This document shows positions 42,001-57,000 of a stretch of DNA of 64,000 bases, in pieces. This stretch comes from an uncultured bacterium (GTDB lineage Bacteria; SAR324; NAC60-12). Location: assembly GCA_964010765.1 (NCBI GenBank), contig CAXGMD010000002.1, positions 41,060-105,059 on the forward strand, read 5' to 3'. The position numbers are program-made. Position 1 is the stretch's first letter. Every line of letters starts with the position of its first letter.

Positions 42001-45000
42001 GGTTGGCAAGAGTTTGAAAAAGAGCACATTCCCGGGGCAGTGTTTCTTGATTTGGATGAATTTTCTGATCAGGATAGTGAATTGCCCCATACCCTTCCTT
42101 CCGAAGAATATTTTTCTAGCAAGGTAGGTGAACTGGGCATTGATAATGAGAGTTGGGTCGTGGTCTATGATTCTACCGGATTGTTTTCTGCAGCTCGAAT
42201 TTGGTGGATGTTCAGAACCTTTGGTCATCACAAGGTTTCCCTGCTCAATGGGGGTCTCCCAAAGTGGAAATCAGAAGGGCGAGAATTGGCCAGGGGTTCG
42301 CAAAAAGTTGATCCTGTAAAATTCGATGCTGTTTTAGAACCAGGACTTGTCGTTGACTGGGAAGCTACAAAGCTGACGTCTCAGAATGAGGCGGCAGTAA
42401 TTCTTGATGCCCGTCCAGCAGAGAGATTTGCTGGTGAAGTTCAAGAACCCAGACCAGGGCTAAGAAGTGGACATATTCCTCATTCGAAAAATCTGCCATT
42501 TATGGATTTGCTGGAGGGTCCTTACCGAATGATGATTTCAGAGGATAATTTAAAAGAGCTTTTTCAAAGATCTGAAATTCTTCAAAACAATGAGATTGTC
42601 TGTTCCTGTGGTTCAGGAGTCACCGCTTGTATCTTGGCTTTGGGATTACATCTAACAGGTCATGATAATGTCAAAATTTACGATGGTTCCTGGACCGAAT
42701 GGGGTGCAAGAGAAGATCTCCCGATTGAAACAGGAAACTGAGATTCAAATAATCAGAGAAATTCTTGGTAAGCGGTAAATGCGTTTTTCCTCACGAGCTA
42801 CAATTGCTTCAGCCACCCATTCTATCTGCTGACCTACCTCCGTCTTCTCCAGAACTTCTACGAGTACGGTTAGCTCATTCGTTCCCGGCCGCACTTCTCC
42901 TCTGAATTCCCACTTCCATTCTGAATCTAAAGGCCATTCTACTTTTTCAGAAATGGATCGATGAGGTGTCCCTTCGGCCAATGCTCTCAAGGCTTGCAGT
43001 GCAGCTTCAATCCCTAAGGATCCTGGCATGACTGGATCGTCGTGAAAGTGGCAGGGATAATACCAATCTTGGTTGTCAACAAATCTGCGCCCAACCACTC
43101 TTCCTAGTCCTCTTTCACCCCCCTCAGGATCAAGTTGGACTTGATGAAGTAAATACAGATGGCCTAGTTGAGGGCAATCCAACCAGGGTAGTTCGGGTGA
43201 AGCTTGCCAATCTGGGTCTGGATATCTTTGACGCTGTCGTTCGAGCGCCCACTCTGGAAAATAGCCAAACAGGGCAACTCCCTCCAGAAAGGGATGATCT
43301 GGGGAGAGATCAGTACTCATTTGGTATGTGAAATGTTCGATGACCTGCCCATCAAAGCGCGTCATTCGGTCAAGTTGAACATTTGTCAGAATCTTTCGGT
43401 CTCTCAGTTCTGGGCGTTCCAATAGCTTTGCGTGCCCCTCAACTAATCTGAAGTGAAGATCATCATCTGGAAATTCAAAAATGCTTCCCATCCAAGCTCC
43501 CAAGAAACCACAGGGCTGGAGAGCGATTTCCAAGAGGACGCTTGCTGGTAAGGGCGCGATGCTGGTCCTATCTGAGAAATACCAGTCCATTTCGTTCACA
43601 TCGTATTCGGCAATCAAACTTGCTGGCTTAGAAAAATTCCTTGGTTCTCCTGATACTTCCAAAACTCTGGTAAGTAGCTTGAGGTCTAAGCAGGGATTTC
43701 GCTGAACAAAGGGTCTCGCATCAAAGGGGGCGTAATGCTCTCCAAAACACTTGGCGACTGAGCCATCAGCAAAATTCTGAATGGCTACCTCATCGAAAGC
43801 AGGTTTGGCCTTAGTGTCTGAAACTGTGCCGATTGAAAAATTAATCTCGTCTGATTTCTTCTCAACTAAACGCACCCCAACATCTCTAAAGTCCACAACA
43901 ATGCGATCTTCAACAAGTACATCAATGTTGGCGATCATGTAGGGTTCTGGATGCAAGCCAATTTCTTTGACTTCAAGTCGATAGGTCATCAAAGAATCTG
44001 AGGGAATAACTTGGCCCCGACATCGAACAATTTGGGGAAGGTTGAGGATCGGTTCAAAGCTGGCGTCTTCAGTAAGAGTCTGCAGTCCTAGGTAAAGCAT
44101 GTAGAATTGCAGCAATTGAACGCAGCCTTCTGCGATCAGCGAGCCAGCCATCACAGGATCCTTGTAAAAGTGGCAAGTGAAGTACCAGTCGTCCGGACGA
44201 AGTTGCTTCTCTGATTCCACAATTCCCAATCCCCAAGCGCCACCTTTGGAATCCATCTTCAGAATGCGATCATTCATCAGTAGTTGTTCAGGTGCCATCC
44301 TCAGAGAAGAATTTTTTTGGTTCTGATCATACTCTTCACCAAAGCATCTTGATGGATTACCTTGAACCAAGTGCAATAAGTCCACTCGCTCAAAAGCTGT
44401 CTGATTACATTTAAGTAGTGGAGAGAAATTAGTCGACTGAATCTGTTGGCGGGCCTCGATTTCTTTCTCGGTATGAATCACTCCCTTGCCCTGATCAAGC
44501 TCCTCTTTAGTAAAGAATCCTGCACAACCTCCATCCATTTTGAGTACCATCTGATCATCAACGAAGCACTCGTAATGGAAGAAAAACAGGAGGCTTTCGC
44601 CATGTCTGGCGAAGGAGTCGATGTGAATTTCATACCTTAGTGTTTGACCACCCCTAGGGAGGGCCGCCATGAATGTCATGGTGCAATCGAGCAGGCGATA
44701 GACCCGGTTTCCCCTATTTTGGAAATCAATGCCTAGATAGCTGATCAACATTAGGTCACACTGACCAGACTCAATCGCTACAGCCCAAGGGATGCGCTCA
44801 TCGGTAGCAAACCAAGCCTGTTTGGGGATGTCATATTCAGTTGTGATGCGGCAGGGTTTGAATTGGTGGGGCTCTGCTTCCAGTTCTGTGACTCTTGTAA
44901 CAAGCAGATAGGGATCTAAAGGCAACCGAACACAGCGTTCATAGCTGTCAATGATAGCGTAGTCCTGGCCAAAAACTTCAGCAATTCGTCCTCCAGCAAA

Positions 45001-54000: not shown

Positions 54001-57000
54001 AAGGAACTTCCACAAGCAGCGTCTACAACACAATTAGTGCCTCCAAGATTAAGCCGATTGGCTACTCTTCCAGCAATCACATTCCCAAGGAGTCCTGGAA
54101 ATGAATTCTCCTCCCACCTGACGTAGGCAGACTTAAATCGTTTAACTAGTTCTTCAGAGGTGTCTTGTTCAAGACCCGCACTAGAAAGAACTGATCTCCA
54201 GATAGGTTCTTGTAGCCGAGAAGTCAAAGAACCCATCAACTTCTGTCCGCCACAAACTCCAAGAATGATTCCAGTTTGAGATAATATTCGTGATTCTTCT
54301 TCCCCAATCCCAGCATCTATCAGAGCTGTTTTTGCTAAGATCAGGGTTAATAGCTGTGATGAGTCAGTGACTTCAAGAATGTTTGGAGGAAGACCAAAAT
54401 CCAACGGATTGAAATCAAGTTCTGGAACAAATCCGCCCTTCTTACAGTAGATTTTGTCTGGTTTGCTTGGATCAGGATCGTAGTAATCTTCAAGATTCCA
54501 TCGATTCGAAGGAACCTCCTCAAGGAAATCATTACCTGAGAGAATGTTGTTCCAATAACTCTGGAGATCTTTTGCACCAGGGAATAGCGCGGAAAGTCCA
54601 ACAACTGCAATCGGGGAGTCAGCCAAGCGATGGGATTTACTAGAACTCTTGAGGGACATTAAAAAAACTCAATTCTGGCGTTCATTTTCCTCCTGGAAAT
54701 GCCTGGAATATGGCGAGAAGAATGCCAAGGTTTGCAAATAAGATTCCCTAAGCTTCTCTAAATATGATTCTGAAACAGGCAGACTTATCAATTCGAATCT
54801 AAAAAATTAATCATAAGCCAATTCAGAATAAAAGACTTGGTAACGGATTAACGCTTTAATTAATAATTCTAATTAATTAATAATTCTAAATCAAAAATCA
54901 GGTTTGATTGTGTGGTACTTTGAGAAGTATGTTGCACGTTTACTTAAAAGTTTATATGTAAAATGTATGTAAATTTCTGGTGAAATTAACCACAAACAAT
55001 CCTGAAGGGTATAAAAGACATGCCAACCGCAAGAATTCTCTATCTCGAAGACGATATTGGCGTCGCATCTCCAACGAAAGCTGTACTTGAGCAGAAAGGT
55101 TACACTGTCATCCACGTTGAAGAGGGAATGGATGCCTTGACAAGGCTGCTAACGGAACATTTTGATGGAGCAATTTGTGATCTAACCCTGCCAGACGTTG
55201 ATGGTTTGAAAGTAATTGAGAGTATCCGATCCAAGAATGCTCGGCTACCAATAATTATTTTGAGTGCAAGGAGTGACACTGAAGAAAAATTAGAAGGACT
55301 ACTTTCAGGGGGTAATGACTACCTGACAAAACCTTTTGCAATCGAAGAACTGCTGACTAGATTAAAAAATATTCTGATGCATCGTCCTCTGCCAACTCAA
55401 GAGGAAGTGCAAGCTTATGGTCTACTGCAAGTATCAGATCTGATCATTGATCCAGTTCGTCAGCAGGTTCGCAGGGCAGGAAATTATGTAGAACTGCGCA
55501 GCAAGGAGTATGAGTTGTTGCATTACATGGTTTTGAATCCCAATCGCATCCTAACGAAAGAGGAACTCCTTAGAGAAATTTGGAATTATCCATATGATCC
55601 ATCGACCCGAATAGTTGATAACTTGGTTGCCAGATTAAGAAAAAAAATGGATCAGGGTTATGATATTCGCCTCATCTATACACGTTGGGGTAAGGGATAT
55701 TATTTCAAAAACCCAGATGCTGACATTTCTAAGATGAGTGTTCCAGAACCACTACAAGTGGCTGAAGTTCCAGAACCGATTGTGAAACCAGAACCGAAAC
55801 CCGAGCCAACTCCTCAATACGGCCCGCTGACGATTCCCCCACCAAGCGCCTACCTTAAAGACTGACGATCCTTTTGAGTTGGGGCGGAGCAAACATTTGC
55901 TTAGCCCCAAAATTTATCATCCAGAGAAATTATTCGGATCATTTCGTTCGTTCTTTAAAAACAAATTATTATGTTTTATAAATCATTAAACTTACTTAAA
56001 TTAAAATAAGTAATATCTTCAGGAAAATACTTATTCCAATTCTATCTATTTCCTATGACCCGTCAGCATTTCCAGCACCCGAACGCAAGCAACAGAATCA
56101 TTGTCCGTGCAAAGATTTTGAACAAAGGCACTCCAATGATAGCCTTAACGCGTAACATCTCTGATCTTGAGGGGATTCTTAGCGCAATTGATGTCGTTAG
56201 ACCTGCAAATGATGGAATCATTAGAGACTTCAATATTGACACCGAGGGGGTAGAACACATTCAGGCAATTCTTCAGATGATGCAATCTCAACCAGGAGAA
56301 GAATACATTAGTCACTCTGATCAGACATTCTTAATTCACCTTGGGGGTAAGATCGAAATTCAGAATCGTGCACCGATGAGGATATAAGTTGGTGATGACT
56401 GGAATAGGTGCAGCGGGTACAGCATGCGCAAAAATGATTGCGCAATTGGGTGTTAAGAACATTGTGGGTTGTGATATTGATGGAGCAGTCGTCCCTGGGG
56501 AGCAATTTGAGCATTCTGGAAAGCAATGGTTTGCAGATAACACCAATCCAAACTCCGAAAGTGGAAGTGTACATGATGTGATCAAAGGAGCAGACGTTTT
56601 CCTCGGAGTCTCAGCTCCAAACGTCATAAACTCATCTGACGTTCAGGCAATGGGGAAAGATCCAATAGTCTTTGCCATGGCTAATCCAGATCCAGAGATA
56701 ATGCCTGAAGAAGCAGAACCTTTCGCAAAAATTGTGGCGACAGGAAGAAGTGATTATCCAAATCAAATAAATAATGTACTTTGCTTCCCAGGCTTATTTA
56801 AAGGTGCTTTCAGCTGTTTAGCCAGAACAATCAAAGAAGAAATGAAACTAGCAGCTGCAAAGGCTATCGCAGCAAGTGTTCCAGAAGAATTTCTTCAAGT
56901 TGACTACATCATACCTACCATTTTCGATTCTTCAGTTACTCAGAATGTGGCGAGGTCAGTCAGAGACGCTGCCATTGCAAGTGGAGTGGCTCGGAGAGAA

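Follow-up and report, generated by a model that had tools for sequence, protein, structure and literature searches.

The AT domain of a Pfa-like synthase as the probable replacement of a lost FabD in a family of uncultured SAR324 bacteria

FabD, which charges the carrier protein of fatty-acid synthesis with malonyl, is normally an essential enzyme. The stretch of DNA analysed here (the window, 64,000 nucleotides) carries a four-gene pfa-like operon on its minus strand, and it belongs to a genome with an otherwise complete type II fatty acid synthesis system (FAS II) in which no canonical fabD was found, raising the question of which enzyme provides malonyl-ACP. A first-pass annotation had proposed that FAS II borrows the AT of the PfaA-like synthase or, as a second possibility, that most acyl chains come from the megasynthase. 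The genome is a metagenome bin (92.4% complete, 266 contigs), as are all those compared, the relatives being drafts save one. The members of the family are uncultured and marine, and are labelled at NCBI as SAR324 cluster or Deltaproteobacteria.

The four ORFs of the operon, present as first annotated, are listed in Table 1. The first two keep the PfaA domain order KS-MAT-ACPn-KR(-DH), but spread over two adjacent ORFs and with two ACPs. PfaA1 aligns with positions 2-1381 of 2582 of the PfaA model TIGR02813 (1544.3 bits, above the cut-off of 1010.1) and PfaA2 with positions 1811-2581, the latter also including a KR domain (PF08659, 106 bits) and weak matches to PKS_DH_N and PS-DH. The Pfam domains of PfaA1 are ketoacyl-synt, Ketoacyl-synt_C, KAsynt_C_assoc, Acyl_transf_1 and two copies of PP-binding; its KS active-site motif is DAACGSS, at residue 213, and the phosphopantetheine serines of the ACPs are residues 1226 and 1323, in the motif LGIDSIKRVE. 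The PfaC-like subunit (PF00109 twice, PF02801, and PF07977 twice with 249 bits) is devoid of the PfaB-like AT insert known from other genera of the family, whose orthologues are 2276-2401-aa frames with a weak AT match. The 126-aa ORF has only sub-threshold Pfam matches (DUF4405, 19.5 bits; cytochrome b561, 15.2 bits) and no tblastn match in any of 12 related loci, some of which stop short of the pfaA2-pfaC junction, and may not be a genuine gene. Elsewhere in the genome, PfaD is encoded on another contig (659 bits, above cut-off) and there is one PPTase match with an Sfp-like frame size, whereas six-frame searches with PF00698 and TIGR00128 found no PfaB or second AT. A weak hint comes from four RNA libraries, whose contigs cover the operon (95-99% identity), but as DNA carry-over is possible they do not prove transcription.

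Table 1. Features of the pfa-like operon (positions count along the window)
Feature	Position	Strand	Domains, evidence or remark
PfaA1 (N-terminal half of a split PfaA), 1369 aa	50550..54659	-	KS, KS-AT linker, AT, two ACPs
KS domain of PfaA1, residues 15-416	53412..54617	-	PF00109 200 bits, PF02801 110 bits
AT domain of PfaA1, residues 586-897	51969..52904	-	PF00698 116.9 bits on the protein
Two tandem ACPs of PfaA1, residues ~1190-1265 and 1290-1362	50574..51092	-	PF00550, two stretches, 75.9 bits
PfaA2 (C-terminal half of a split PfaA; KR and PKS-type DH), 762 aa	48169..50457	-	TIGR02813 386.8 bits
Hydrophobic ORF between pfaA2 and pfaC, 126 aa	47792..48172	-	4-base overlap with pfaA2
PfaC-like subunit (KS, CLF, two FabA-like dehydratases), 1668 aa	42745..47751	-	Pfam

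The AT domain of PfaA1 is the only one detected in the genome. Searched in six frames (E ≤ 10), PF00698 matches C2:93022-93963 (positions 51963-52904 of the window; 118.9 bits, in a 1372-aa frame) and otherwise gives just one 11.5-bit non-hit, which reproduces exactly the values of the first-pass annotation. The best place for the fabD model TIGR00128 is also inside PfaA1 (192.5 bits, 188.3 on the protein), where it covers model positions 2-287 of 290 with a score below the cut-off of 260.9, and nothing else was found with it in this genome beyond a 12.1-bit non-hit. An unfiltered scan (hmmsearch --max) of all its 57,041 frames between stops (35 aa or longer), using profiles of 10 FabDs of the sister family and of 7 free-standing PfaA-type ATs (see below), matched PfaA1 alone (E 1e-33 and 1.7e-128, respectively), the next best frame having an E-value of 0.04. 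No gene for a free-standing PfaA-type AT was thus found in the window's genome, the corresponding profile matching only PfaA1.

In AT domains the Gln of GQGSQ forms the oxyanion site, the Ser of GHSxG is the nucleophile and an Arg binds malonyl, together with the His of AFH. All four are in place in PfaA1 (GQGSQ at residue 589; GHSFGE at 682, with Ser684; ARG at 708, with Arg709; SAAFHT at 786, with His790), and the catalytic set is intact; in FabD, Q11 and S92 belong to this set (PMC12895367). Each of the family's 23 embedded ATs keeps these motifs (GHSYGE in one, SAAFHS in one), as do all 7 free-standing ATs (AAAFHT in one). The nearest solved structure is that of a FabD (3im8, E 3e-34), aligned end to end. 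Compared with canonical FabD (TIGR00128; 3im8, 2cuy, 1mla), the AT of the window shares the fold and the catalytic residues (Gln, Ser, Arg, His), but is embedded in a 1369-aa synthase instead of being a free protein of ~300 aa. It is 28-32% identical to the FabDs of the sister family, which have GHS[VLM]GE/SAPFHS in place of GHSFGE/SAAFHT.

The presence of FAS II genes, claimed earlier, is confirmed by profile scores: FabG (328 bits), AcpP (108 bits), FabF (607 bits), FabZ (176 bits) and KAS III (NF005703, 490 bits) are all above cut-off, as are the acyl-ACP users LpxA (309 bits) and PlsX (371 bits), and a FabI-like protein completes the set. The system is somewhat atypical, since the FabI-like protein (329 bits) falls below the equivalog cut-off of 391 and the KAS III belongs to the PRK07515 type rather than being a classical FabH (128 bits on that model, versus 292). 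AcpP is above cut-off in 42 of the 45 family genomes. The fab cluster of the window's genome, rpsB-tsf-pyrH-frr-GT4-fabG-acpP-fabF, lies well away from the ends of its contig (51 kb) and contains no fabD, the gene that precedes fabG encoding a glycosyltransferase (Glycos_transf_4, GT4), as had been noted.

This gene content is not particular to the window's genome. The first-pass annotation had limited the pattern to 3 genomes of two genera, which is too narrow: the fabD-less state is common to 12 genera, with 31 relatives at least 85% complete, and includes a closed genome (G020) and one of only 5 contigs (G016). TIGR00128 exceeds its cut-off in 2 of the 45 family genomes and, among genomes at least 85% complete, in 2 of 31 relatives, as against all 10 genomes of the sister family. 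Both of the family matches are PKS-linked, one being an AT that adjoins a PKS gene and the other a 790-aa AT-PfaD fusion. At class level, FabD is present in 7/7 (f2) and 1/1 (f3) genomes at least 90% complete. A state similar to that of the window's family was observed in two genera of another family. The sister-family loci have the order fabD-fabG(-acpP-fabF) in 10/10 cases, one of them ended by a contig edge, and those of the window's family the order GT4-fabG-acpP-fabF in 19/21, with a FabD-like ORF in none of the 21. Throughout the family, canonical fabD is missing as a housekeeping gene, and its usual place in the fab cluster is empty. A PfaA-type match was found in every one of the 31 relatives at least 85% complete. 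Within the genera that have only an embedded AT, a strong AT match is present in 31 of 38 genomes; the other seven are 51-87% complete, and in one of them (G040, 87%) PfaA opens at the contig start. Five genomes of other phyla whose PfaA1 comes closest each retain a canonical FabD (312-364 bits), so that holding both is the ordinary state.

The family comprises two clades, one with only the PfaA-embedded AT, to which the window's genome belongs, and another with a free-standing AT of 413-456 aa, which its scores, its place in the tree and its fold all mark as PfaA-type. The five of these that were scored reach 367-434 bits on positions ~480-920 of the PfaA model, versus 155-194 bits on the fabD model. 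The AT tree groups all seven together (SH-aLRT 99) within the PfaA ATs and far from FabD, without settling how the free-standing and embedded clades are related. An AF2 model (pLDDT 93.4) matches PKS linker+AT structures over ~440 columns (TMq 0.79-0.82), whereas FabD covers only 312. The 460-aa ORF of the closed relative, previously taken for a FabD, was rejected as a canonical one: it gives 391 bits on TIGR02813 positions 481-920 versus 155 bits on TIGR00128, and is a free-standing PfaA-type linker+AT. Three genomes (G019, G021, G025) have the free-standing AT as sole AT and no megasynthase or PfaD; they have one KS each in G019 and G025 (FabF) and two in G021, both FabF-sized. Here, the free-standing AT can only serve FAS II, and this clade has turned a linker+AT of PfaA origin into a domesticated free protein. 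With the free-standing ATs the AT of the window shares 45-53% identity, so that their function transfers to it by homology only. In a species tree built from FabF, FabG and AcpP only, by a quick search without bootstraps, the embedded-only clade has an SH-aLRT of 83. Another weak hint is the AT/KS identity ratio, which is 0.88-0.98 in the 6 pairs without any further AT, 0.74-0.83 in 9 pairs including a genome that also has a free-standing AT, and 0.78 (median) in 28 outside pairs, the pairs being few and non-independent.

We consider it quite probable that the family lost fabD, that the AT of PfaA1 is the sole transacylase for both systems, and that the Pfa-like synthase is indispensable. After the loss of the housekeeping gene in the lineage, this AT would be the cell's only malonyl-CoA:ACP transacylase; it would serve the two tandem ACPs of PfaA1 itself and, acting in trans, also AcpP, the soluble carrier of FAS II, whose malonylation in vivo by this AT we infer. 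The synthase gene would then become indispensable, with one active site supplying malonyl to both lipid pathways. Taken by itself, loading of AcpP in trans by the AT of PfaA is likely. The core of the first-pass reading is thus backed by the family-wide comparison, while its scope, its 460-aa ORF and its claim of a new coupling required correction.

The mechanism is in fact not new in principle. A Pfa-bearing Photobacterium can do without fabD, though not without fabD and pfaA together (synthetic lethality), and E. coli fabD::Kan is rescued by pfa clusters in a temperature-sensitive manner (Allemann & Allen 2021, PMC8174602). Whether in fabD mutants of P. profundum SS9 or in E. coli fabD::Kan with pfaABCD(E), the PfaA MAT supplies type II FAS with malonyl-ACP in the absence of FabD, and the Pfa synthase is essential once FabD is gone (PMC8174602). 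An embedded AT is known to load AcpP in trans only from gammaproteobacterial Pfa synthases, and a non-essential FabD in other Pfa-bearing bacteria was speculated by the same authors (PMC8174602). Those are laboratory mutants of organisms that naturally keep fabD, whereas a natural and ancient loss has become fixed in the whole of the window's family. In contrast to the Photobacterium synthase, that of the window has a split PfaA, 2 ACPs, no PfaB and an unlinked pfaD. The split of pfaA into KS-AT-ACPn and KR genes recalls Types D and H of Shulse and Allen (2011), as does the fused pfaBC-like gene in other genera of the family; the window differs in a PfaC without AT-like part, in having only 2 ACPs and in the unlinked pfaD (passages on these types in PMC3098273, where fabD is not discussed and the products of many Pfa-type clusters are given as uncharacterised). 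The excised MAT of subunit A of the Thraustochytrium PUFA synthase rescues E. coli fabD(ts) (PMC8003026), and is the laboratory counterpart of the 413-456 aa ATs; it is engineered, whereas the free-standing AT is a natural gene, vertical through five genera, that keeps the KS-AT linker subdomain. Streptomyces FabD, mentioned in PMC8174602 as common to FAS and type II PKS, is likewise one malonyl transacylase for two carrier-protein systems, but there a housekeeping FabD serves a secondary pathway, and we propose the opposite direction for the window.

Malonyl-ACP could instead come from a transacylase of non-AT fold or from self-malonylation of AcpP, with the PfaA AT serving its own ACPs only. 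E. coli fabD(ts) does yield temperature-resistant suppressors by an uncharacterised route (PMC8174602), the genome has many unannotated ORFs, and profile searches detect homologues only. We regard this as unlikely, as it leaves unexplained the intact PfaA-derived sole AT of the three megasynthase-free genomes and the PfaA-type AT kept in all relatives at least 85% complete, and the conserved fab cluster offers no candidate gene. Slightly less likely still is a FabD-like free AT that arises from PfaA1 through an internal start or proteolysis, the intact megasynthase not being the loader. The ~440-aa linker+AT is stable and useful alone in the sister clade, and the excised MAT rescues fabD(ts) (PMC8003026), but no sequence mark of such a product was seen (internal ribosome-binding sites lay outside the search), and the rescue of E. 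coli fabD::Kan by whole pfa clusters involves no processing that is known (PMC8174602). It is more doubtful again that the Pfa-like synthase makes the bulk of the acyl chains, with FAS II kept for minor jobs without the PfaA AT: P. profundum suppressors grow without monounsaturated synthesis at high levels of Pfa product (PMC8174602), but FabF condenses with malonyl-ACP at any flux and a loader is still required, the three megasynthase-free genomes depend on FAS II alone, and the genes for FabG, AcpP, FabF, FabZ, LpxA and PlsX are not decaying, as their scores above curated cut-offs indicate. A fabD missed through binning or an assembly gap is highly improbable, for although the window's genome is incomplete and nearly all relatives are drafts, the same state recurs in 12 genera including the closed and the 5-contig genome, the GT4-fabG junction fills the fabD slot inside contigs in 19 of 21 loci, and sister-family drafts of similar quality have fabD in 10/10.

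We found no report of a natural loss of fabD. With somewhat less assurance than for the window itself, we favour the joint reading that FabD was permanently displaced by a megasynthase AT, embedded in one clade and excised in the other, and the two genera of another family suggest that such displacement recurs wherever both systems coexist. If this is true, in the embedded clade a secondary lipid synthase would be essential, and one active site would apportion malonyl-CoA to the fatty acids of the membrane on one side and to the Pfa product on the other; in the other clade, the linker+AT would have been excised as a free-standing FabD analogue, after which the megasynthase would have become dispensable.

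The pfa-like operon of the window comprises four ORFs, whose coordinates are collected in the table below. PfaA1 scores 1544 bits on the PfaA model TIGR02813 (cut-off 1010) over model positions 2-1381, and PfaA2 matches positions 1811-2581; as the two cover successive stretches of the model, together they constitute a split PfaA. The operon is flanked by genes with no link to lipids (ABC sugar transporter, ParA-like, rhodanese, response regulator), and PfaD is encoded on a separate contig of the same genome, G000 (659 bits, cut-off 449). The short hydrophobic ORF between pfaA2 and pfaC overlaps pfaA2 by 4 bases and has sub-threshold matches to DUF4405 and cytochrome b561. 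It was rejected as a conserved member of the cluster, with a homologue in none of 12 related loci, some of which end before the pfaA2-pfaC junction. The PfaC of the window is devoid of a PfaB-like AT insert of ~700 aa seen in orthologues of 2276-2401 aa; this insert is carried by genera g2, g9, g11 and g12 and gives weak AT matches (E 1e-6 to 1e-9; window PfaC compared with loci L006, L007 and L094).

Features of the split pfaA operon (window positions)
Feature	Position	Strand	Description
Four-ORF operon	42745-54659	minus	PfaA1, PfaA2, 126-aa ORF, PfaC-like
PfaA1	50550-54659	minus	1369 aa; KS, KS-AT linker, AT, two ACPs
PfaA2	48169-50457	minus	762 aa; KR and PKS-type DH
Hydrophobic ORF	47792-48172	minus	126 aa
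PfaC-like protein	42745-47751	minus	1668 aa; KS, CLF, two FabA-like dehydratases

Elsewhere in the window, neighbouring ORFs of 110 and 216 aa (56055-57039) look like a fragmented malic-enzyme gene, the larger one matching only positions 172-257 of PF03949, the last third of the NAD-binding domain. Two short-chain dehydrogenase matches, one reaching window positions 1-167 (G000:C2:40486-41226) and the other at C2:17591-18163, are read through one and two in-frame TGA codons, respectively, and could be pseudogenes or the product of sequencing errors.

The AT of PfaA1, which with its linker spans approximately residues 470-910, carries the motifs GQGSQ, GHSFGE (Ser684), ARG and SAAFHT and can be aligned over its full length with solved FabDs (best 3im8, E 3e-34). 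In a six-frame search of G000 with PF00698 (E ≤ 10), this domain (118.9 bits) was found together with a single 11.5-bit non-hit, which bears out the first-pass annotation in placing the genome's only PF00698 domain within the PfaA-like synthase. The canonical FabD model, TIGR00128, reaches 192.5 bits at the same domain, below its cut-off of 260.9, besides a 12.1-bit non-hit. We also looked for a hidden or divergent FabD with custom profiles, built from the 10 nearest FabDs (those of the sister family, f2) and from seven free-standing PfaA-type ATs of related genera, with no filtering for speed, against every stop-to-stop frame of 35 aa or more in G000 (57,041 in total). Only the PfaA1 frame was matched (E 1e-33 with the FabD profile, 1.7e-128 with the free-AT profile), the next-best match having an E-value of 0.04. 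An ORF of 311 aa downstream of fabF, considered as a candidate AT, turned out to be DUF58.

The fab cluster of G000 (rpsB-tsf-pyrH-frr-GT4-fabG-acpP-fabF) lies in the interior of a 51-kb contig and, as had been noted earlier, a glycosyltransferase family 4 gene (GT4) precedes fabG, with no fabD there. FabG (328 bits), AcpP (108; C14:41770-41994) and FabF (607) all exceed their cut-offs, as does FabZ (176 bits, cut-off 155). The KAS III is of the PRK07515 type (490 bits, cut-off 304), with the classical FabH model giving 128 bits against a cut-off of 292, and the score of a FabI-like protein (329 bits) falls short of its cut-off of 391. PlsX (371 bits) and LpxA (309 bits) are present too. With this set of genes, the cell needs malonyl-AcpP. 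G000 also has an additional KS-ACP pair (C53:20639-22077), in which a second KS of FabF size, with 158 bits on PF00109 in a frame of 412 aa, immediately precedes a second and divergent ACP (39.5 bits), and a type III PKS-like protein of 353 aa (C58; L086:5777-6838), whose best match (164 bits, below the cut-off of 425) is DpgA, the 3,5-dihydroxyphenylacetyl-CoA synthase.

The absence of FabD is a trait of the whole family of the window, f1, and not of one bin. The TIGR00128 cut-off is exceeded in only two of 45 f1 genomes (12 genera); canonical AcpP passes its cut-off in 42 of the 45. Among the 42 genomes of the order that are at least 85% complete, with canonical FabD taken as a match at E ≤ 1e-70, FabD was present in 10/10 from f2, in 2/31 f1 relatives, which are non-independent samples, and not in G000; PfaA-type matches at E ≤ 1e-60 were obtained in 31/31 f1 relatives and 1/10 f2 genomes. 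Canonical FabD is thus defined here by the TIGR00128 cut-off or by an E-value proxy, and every genome except one is a draft bin. The two FabD-level matches in f1, an AT adjoining a PKS gene in G026 and a 790-aa AT-PfaD fusion in G023, sit in trans-AT-PKS-like contexts. At class level (at least 90% complete), FabD was found in 7/7 f2 and 1/1 f3 genomes, and in f4 a match at E ≤ 1e-60 was obtained for 9/12, eight of these above the cut-off.

In the f4 genera g24 and g25, three genomes (G057, G058 and G060) have no housekeeping-type FabD, and their only AT matches lie in frames of 1495-2858 aa. In G057 (C365:7773-8663) and G060 (C1:205821-206708) there is one AT each, in a PfaA1-like frame of ~1500 aa. 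The congeners G059 and G061 have FabD-level matches. One falls in a frame of 770 aa, with a second AT on a contig bearing a 3770-aa frame as well; the other is truncated where its contig ends. FabD is retained in the remaining six f4 genera. In g24 and g25, FabD may thus have been displaced a second time, independently of f1.

The gene order around fabG bears on when fabD may have been lost. We took acpP or fabD neighbourhoods from 31 genomes and labelled their ORFs by BLASTP against G000 proteins, one f2 FabD and PfaA1. All ten f2 loci have fabD-fabG(-acpP-fabF), one of them cut by a contig end, and 19 of the 21 f1 loci have GT4-fabG-acpP-fabF, mostly with rpsB-tsf-pyrH-frr upstream; in the remaining two (G024 and G030) acpP-fabF alone is visible. 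None of the 21 f1 neighbourhoods contained an ORF labelled as FabD- or AT-like. The new GT4-fabG junction, common to f1 loci, argues for a single loss of fabD at the base of the family.

AT frames of 404-518 aa in f1 relatives were considered as stand-alone FabDs, and proved to be either PfaA-type linker+AT proteins or the PKS-linked ATs of G026 and G023. The former occur in genera g3, g4, g5, g7 and g8. Five of these free-standing ATs score 367-434 bits at PfaA model positions ~480-920 (linker+AT) against 155-194 bits on the fabD model, and those of G022 and G023 show the PfaA-type pattern as well. All seven have complete catalytic motifs (AAAFHT for SAAFHT in one), with the PfaA-type signatures GHSFGE and [SA]AAFHT, where f2 FabDs have GHS[VLM]GE and SAPFHS. 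In an AT tree (72 rows, quick IQ-TREE search with SH-aLRT supports only and no bootstraps), a clade of the ten f2 FabDs (99) is separate from that of all PfaA-type ATs (98). The seven free-standing ATs form a single clade (99) within a 39-row group (99) that also contains the embedded ATs of f1 and PfaA ATs from other phyla, with the order of the subgroups unresolved. The AF2 model of one free-standing AT (pLDDT 93.4, pTM 0.92) superposes on PKS KS-AT didomains and linker+AT constructs over ~440 columns (TMq 0.79-0.82), but on a FabD over 312 columns only (TMq 0.61). Their neighbourhood is uninformative, as an AI-2E transporter gene adjoins in only 4/7 loci. In the free-standing AT of G019 (L088:5600-6923) the first ~43 residues align in another frame than the remainder. 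NCBI proteins identical to two of the seven are labelled 'SAR324 cluster bacterium'. Two further free-standing PfaA-type ATs, P0067 (453 aa) and P0047 (464 aa), have 45-46% identity to those of f1 and come from long contigs belonging to other lineages; one of the two is named Coriobacteriia bacterium, and its contig is 2.8 Mb long. Excision of the AT from PfaA may have occurred in other lineages too.

A species tree of 30 genomes, based on three linked fab genes (FabF+FabG+AcpP) and rooted on f2 (quick search, no bootstraps; one f2 genome omitted, its locus being without FabF and AcpP), divides f1 into a clade with free-standing ATs (g4, g8, g5, g7, g3; SH-aLRT 96) and the window's own clade, with embedded ATs only (g6, g10, g1, g11, g2, g9, g12; SH-aLRT 83). 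The tree of free-standing ATs has an identical branching order, consistent with vertical descent. In the clade with free-standing ATs, G026 and G022 retain a PfaA with its own AT, and three genomes (G019, G021 and G025) have no megasynthase: G019 and G025 encode one KS (FabF), G021 two, both in frames of ~425 aa, and PfaD was found in none of G019, G020, G021 and G025. With the free-standing AT as the sole AT of these three genomes and no megasynthase present, FAS II is its only client. Of the comparative arguments that FabD's job is done in f1 by an AT of PfaA type, this is the strongest.

In the embedded-only genera, a strong AT match within a large or contig-cut PfaA frame was found in 31/38 genomes; the other seven are 51-87% complete, and in one, G040 (87%), PfaA starts at the contig start. 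Two apparent stand-alone FabDs were discarded: a 468-aa frame of G035, from the window's genus, is a PfaA1 truncated where its contig, of 3361 bp, ends, and a 270-aa frame of G028 is a truncated second AT copy at a contig start. The latter (L155:1-795, G028:C49) comprises the linker and first AT half on a 16.7-kb contig, with 81% DNA identity to that genome's own PfaA AT, and may represent variation between strains, an assembly error or a pseudogene. Between PfaA1 orthologues the AT/KS identity ratio is 0.88-0.98 where the embedded AT is the sole one (6 pairs), 0.74-0.83 in pairs including a genome that also has a free-standing AT (9 pairs), and has a median of 0.78 in other phyla (28 pairs), the pairs being few and non-independent; this is a weak hint of constraint on the sole embedded AT. 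Five genomes from outside phyla with PfaA all hold a canonical FabD beside it (312-364 bits), so that the ordinary state is to have both.

In our view, the embedded AT of PfaA1 probably malonylates the two tandem ACPs of PfaA1 itself and also, acting in trans, the soluble AcpP; that it reaches AcpP is what we infer. A single phosphopantetheinyl transferase match was found in G000 (C31:19834-20157; 43.6 bits), in a frame of 223 aa and thus Sfp-like in size, so that this enzyme, too, may be shared by AcpP and the ACPs of PfaA. There is experimental precedent: Allemann & Allen 2021 (PMC8174602) found that P. profundum SS9 can do without fabD, but that loss of fabD and pfaA together is lethal. In their work two cloned pfa clusters permitted transduction of fabD::Kan into E. 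coli, with no need for the PfaE PPTase and no rescue at 37 °C, and they speculated that other bacteria bearing Pfa may not require FabD either. In PMC8003026, a fabD(ts) strain was rescued by the MAT excised from subunit A of a thraustochytrid. The rival explanations are all unlikely. Loading by a non-homologous enzyme, or self-malonylation of AcpP, ranks first among them, set against the genomes in which a free-standing PfaA-type AT has only FAS II to serve. Next comes an AT fragment released from PfaA1, in which the same domain would act. A marginal FAS II sits poorly with a cell that needs malonyl-AcpP, and an assembly gap hiding fabD, conceivable for draft bins, is the weakest, the absence being family-wide. 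Loading of AcpP by the embedded AT remains the reading that we prefer.

The PfaA loci nearest to that of the window are labelled 'Deltaproteobacteria bacterium', 'SAR324 cluster bacterium' or 'uncultured bacterium', and the PfaA tree of PMC11837533 includes homologues attributed to Deltaproteobacteria/SAR324. Near-identical operon DNA (0.95-0.97 of sampled words) occurs in 13 marine metagenome runs from 8 studies, at least 7 of them besides the possible source. Contigs from four metatranscriptome libraries cover the operon, including the AT, at 95-99% identity, which is only a weak hint, since contigs from RNA libraries cannot show transcription, strand or level. In the literature outside subscription journals and supplements, we found no report of a natural fabD loss in which a Pfa AT took over, nor of fatty-acid or lipid synthesis in SAR324, and the SAR324 pangenome paper (PMC8364033) contains none of the five terms looked up.

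The biochemical possibility of a Pfa AT standing in for FabD is already known; as far as we have seen, what is new is that FabD has been displaced in nature across a whole family, and that the linker+AT unit has become a domesticated protein. FabD is regarded as catalysing a universal, essential step in how bacteria make fatty acids and as a target for drugs, and automated pathway reconstruction would call FAS II incomplete throughout the f1 lineage. If our reading is true, the Pfa rescue of fabD mutants, so far a laboratory curiosity, would become a natural and long-lived arrangement, and f1 would clearly illustrate how a domain can be excised from a megasynthase and domesticated in place of a housekeeping enzyme. 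It would also explain the persistence of the Pfa-like operon in the embedded-only clade, and predicts that two lipid pathways are coupled there via a single malonyl-loading site.
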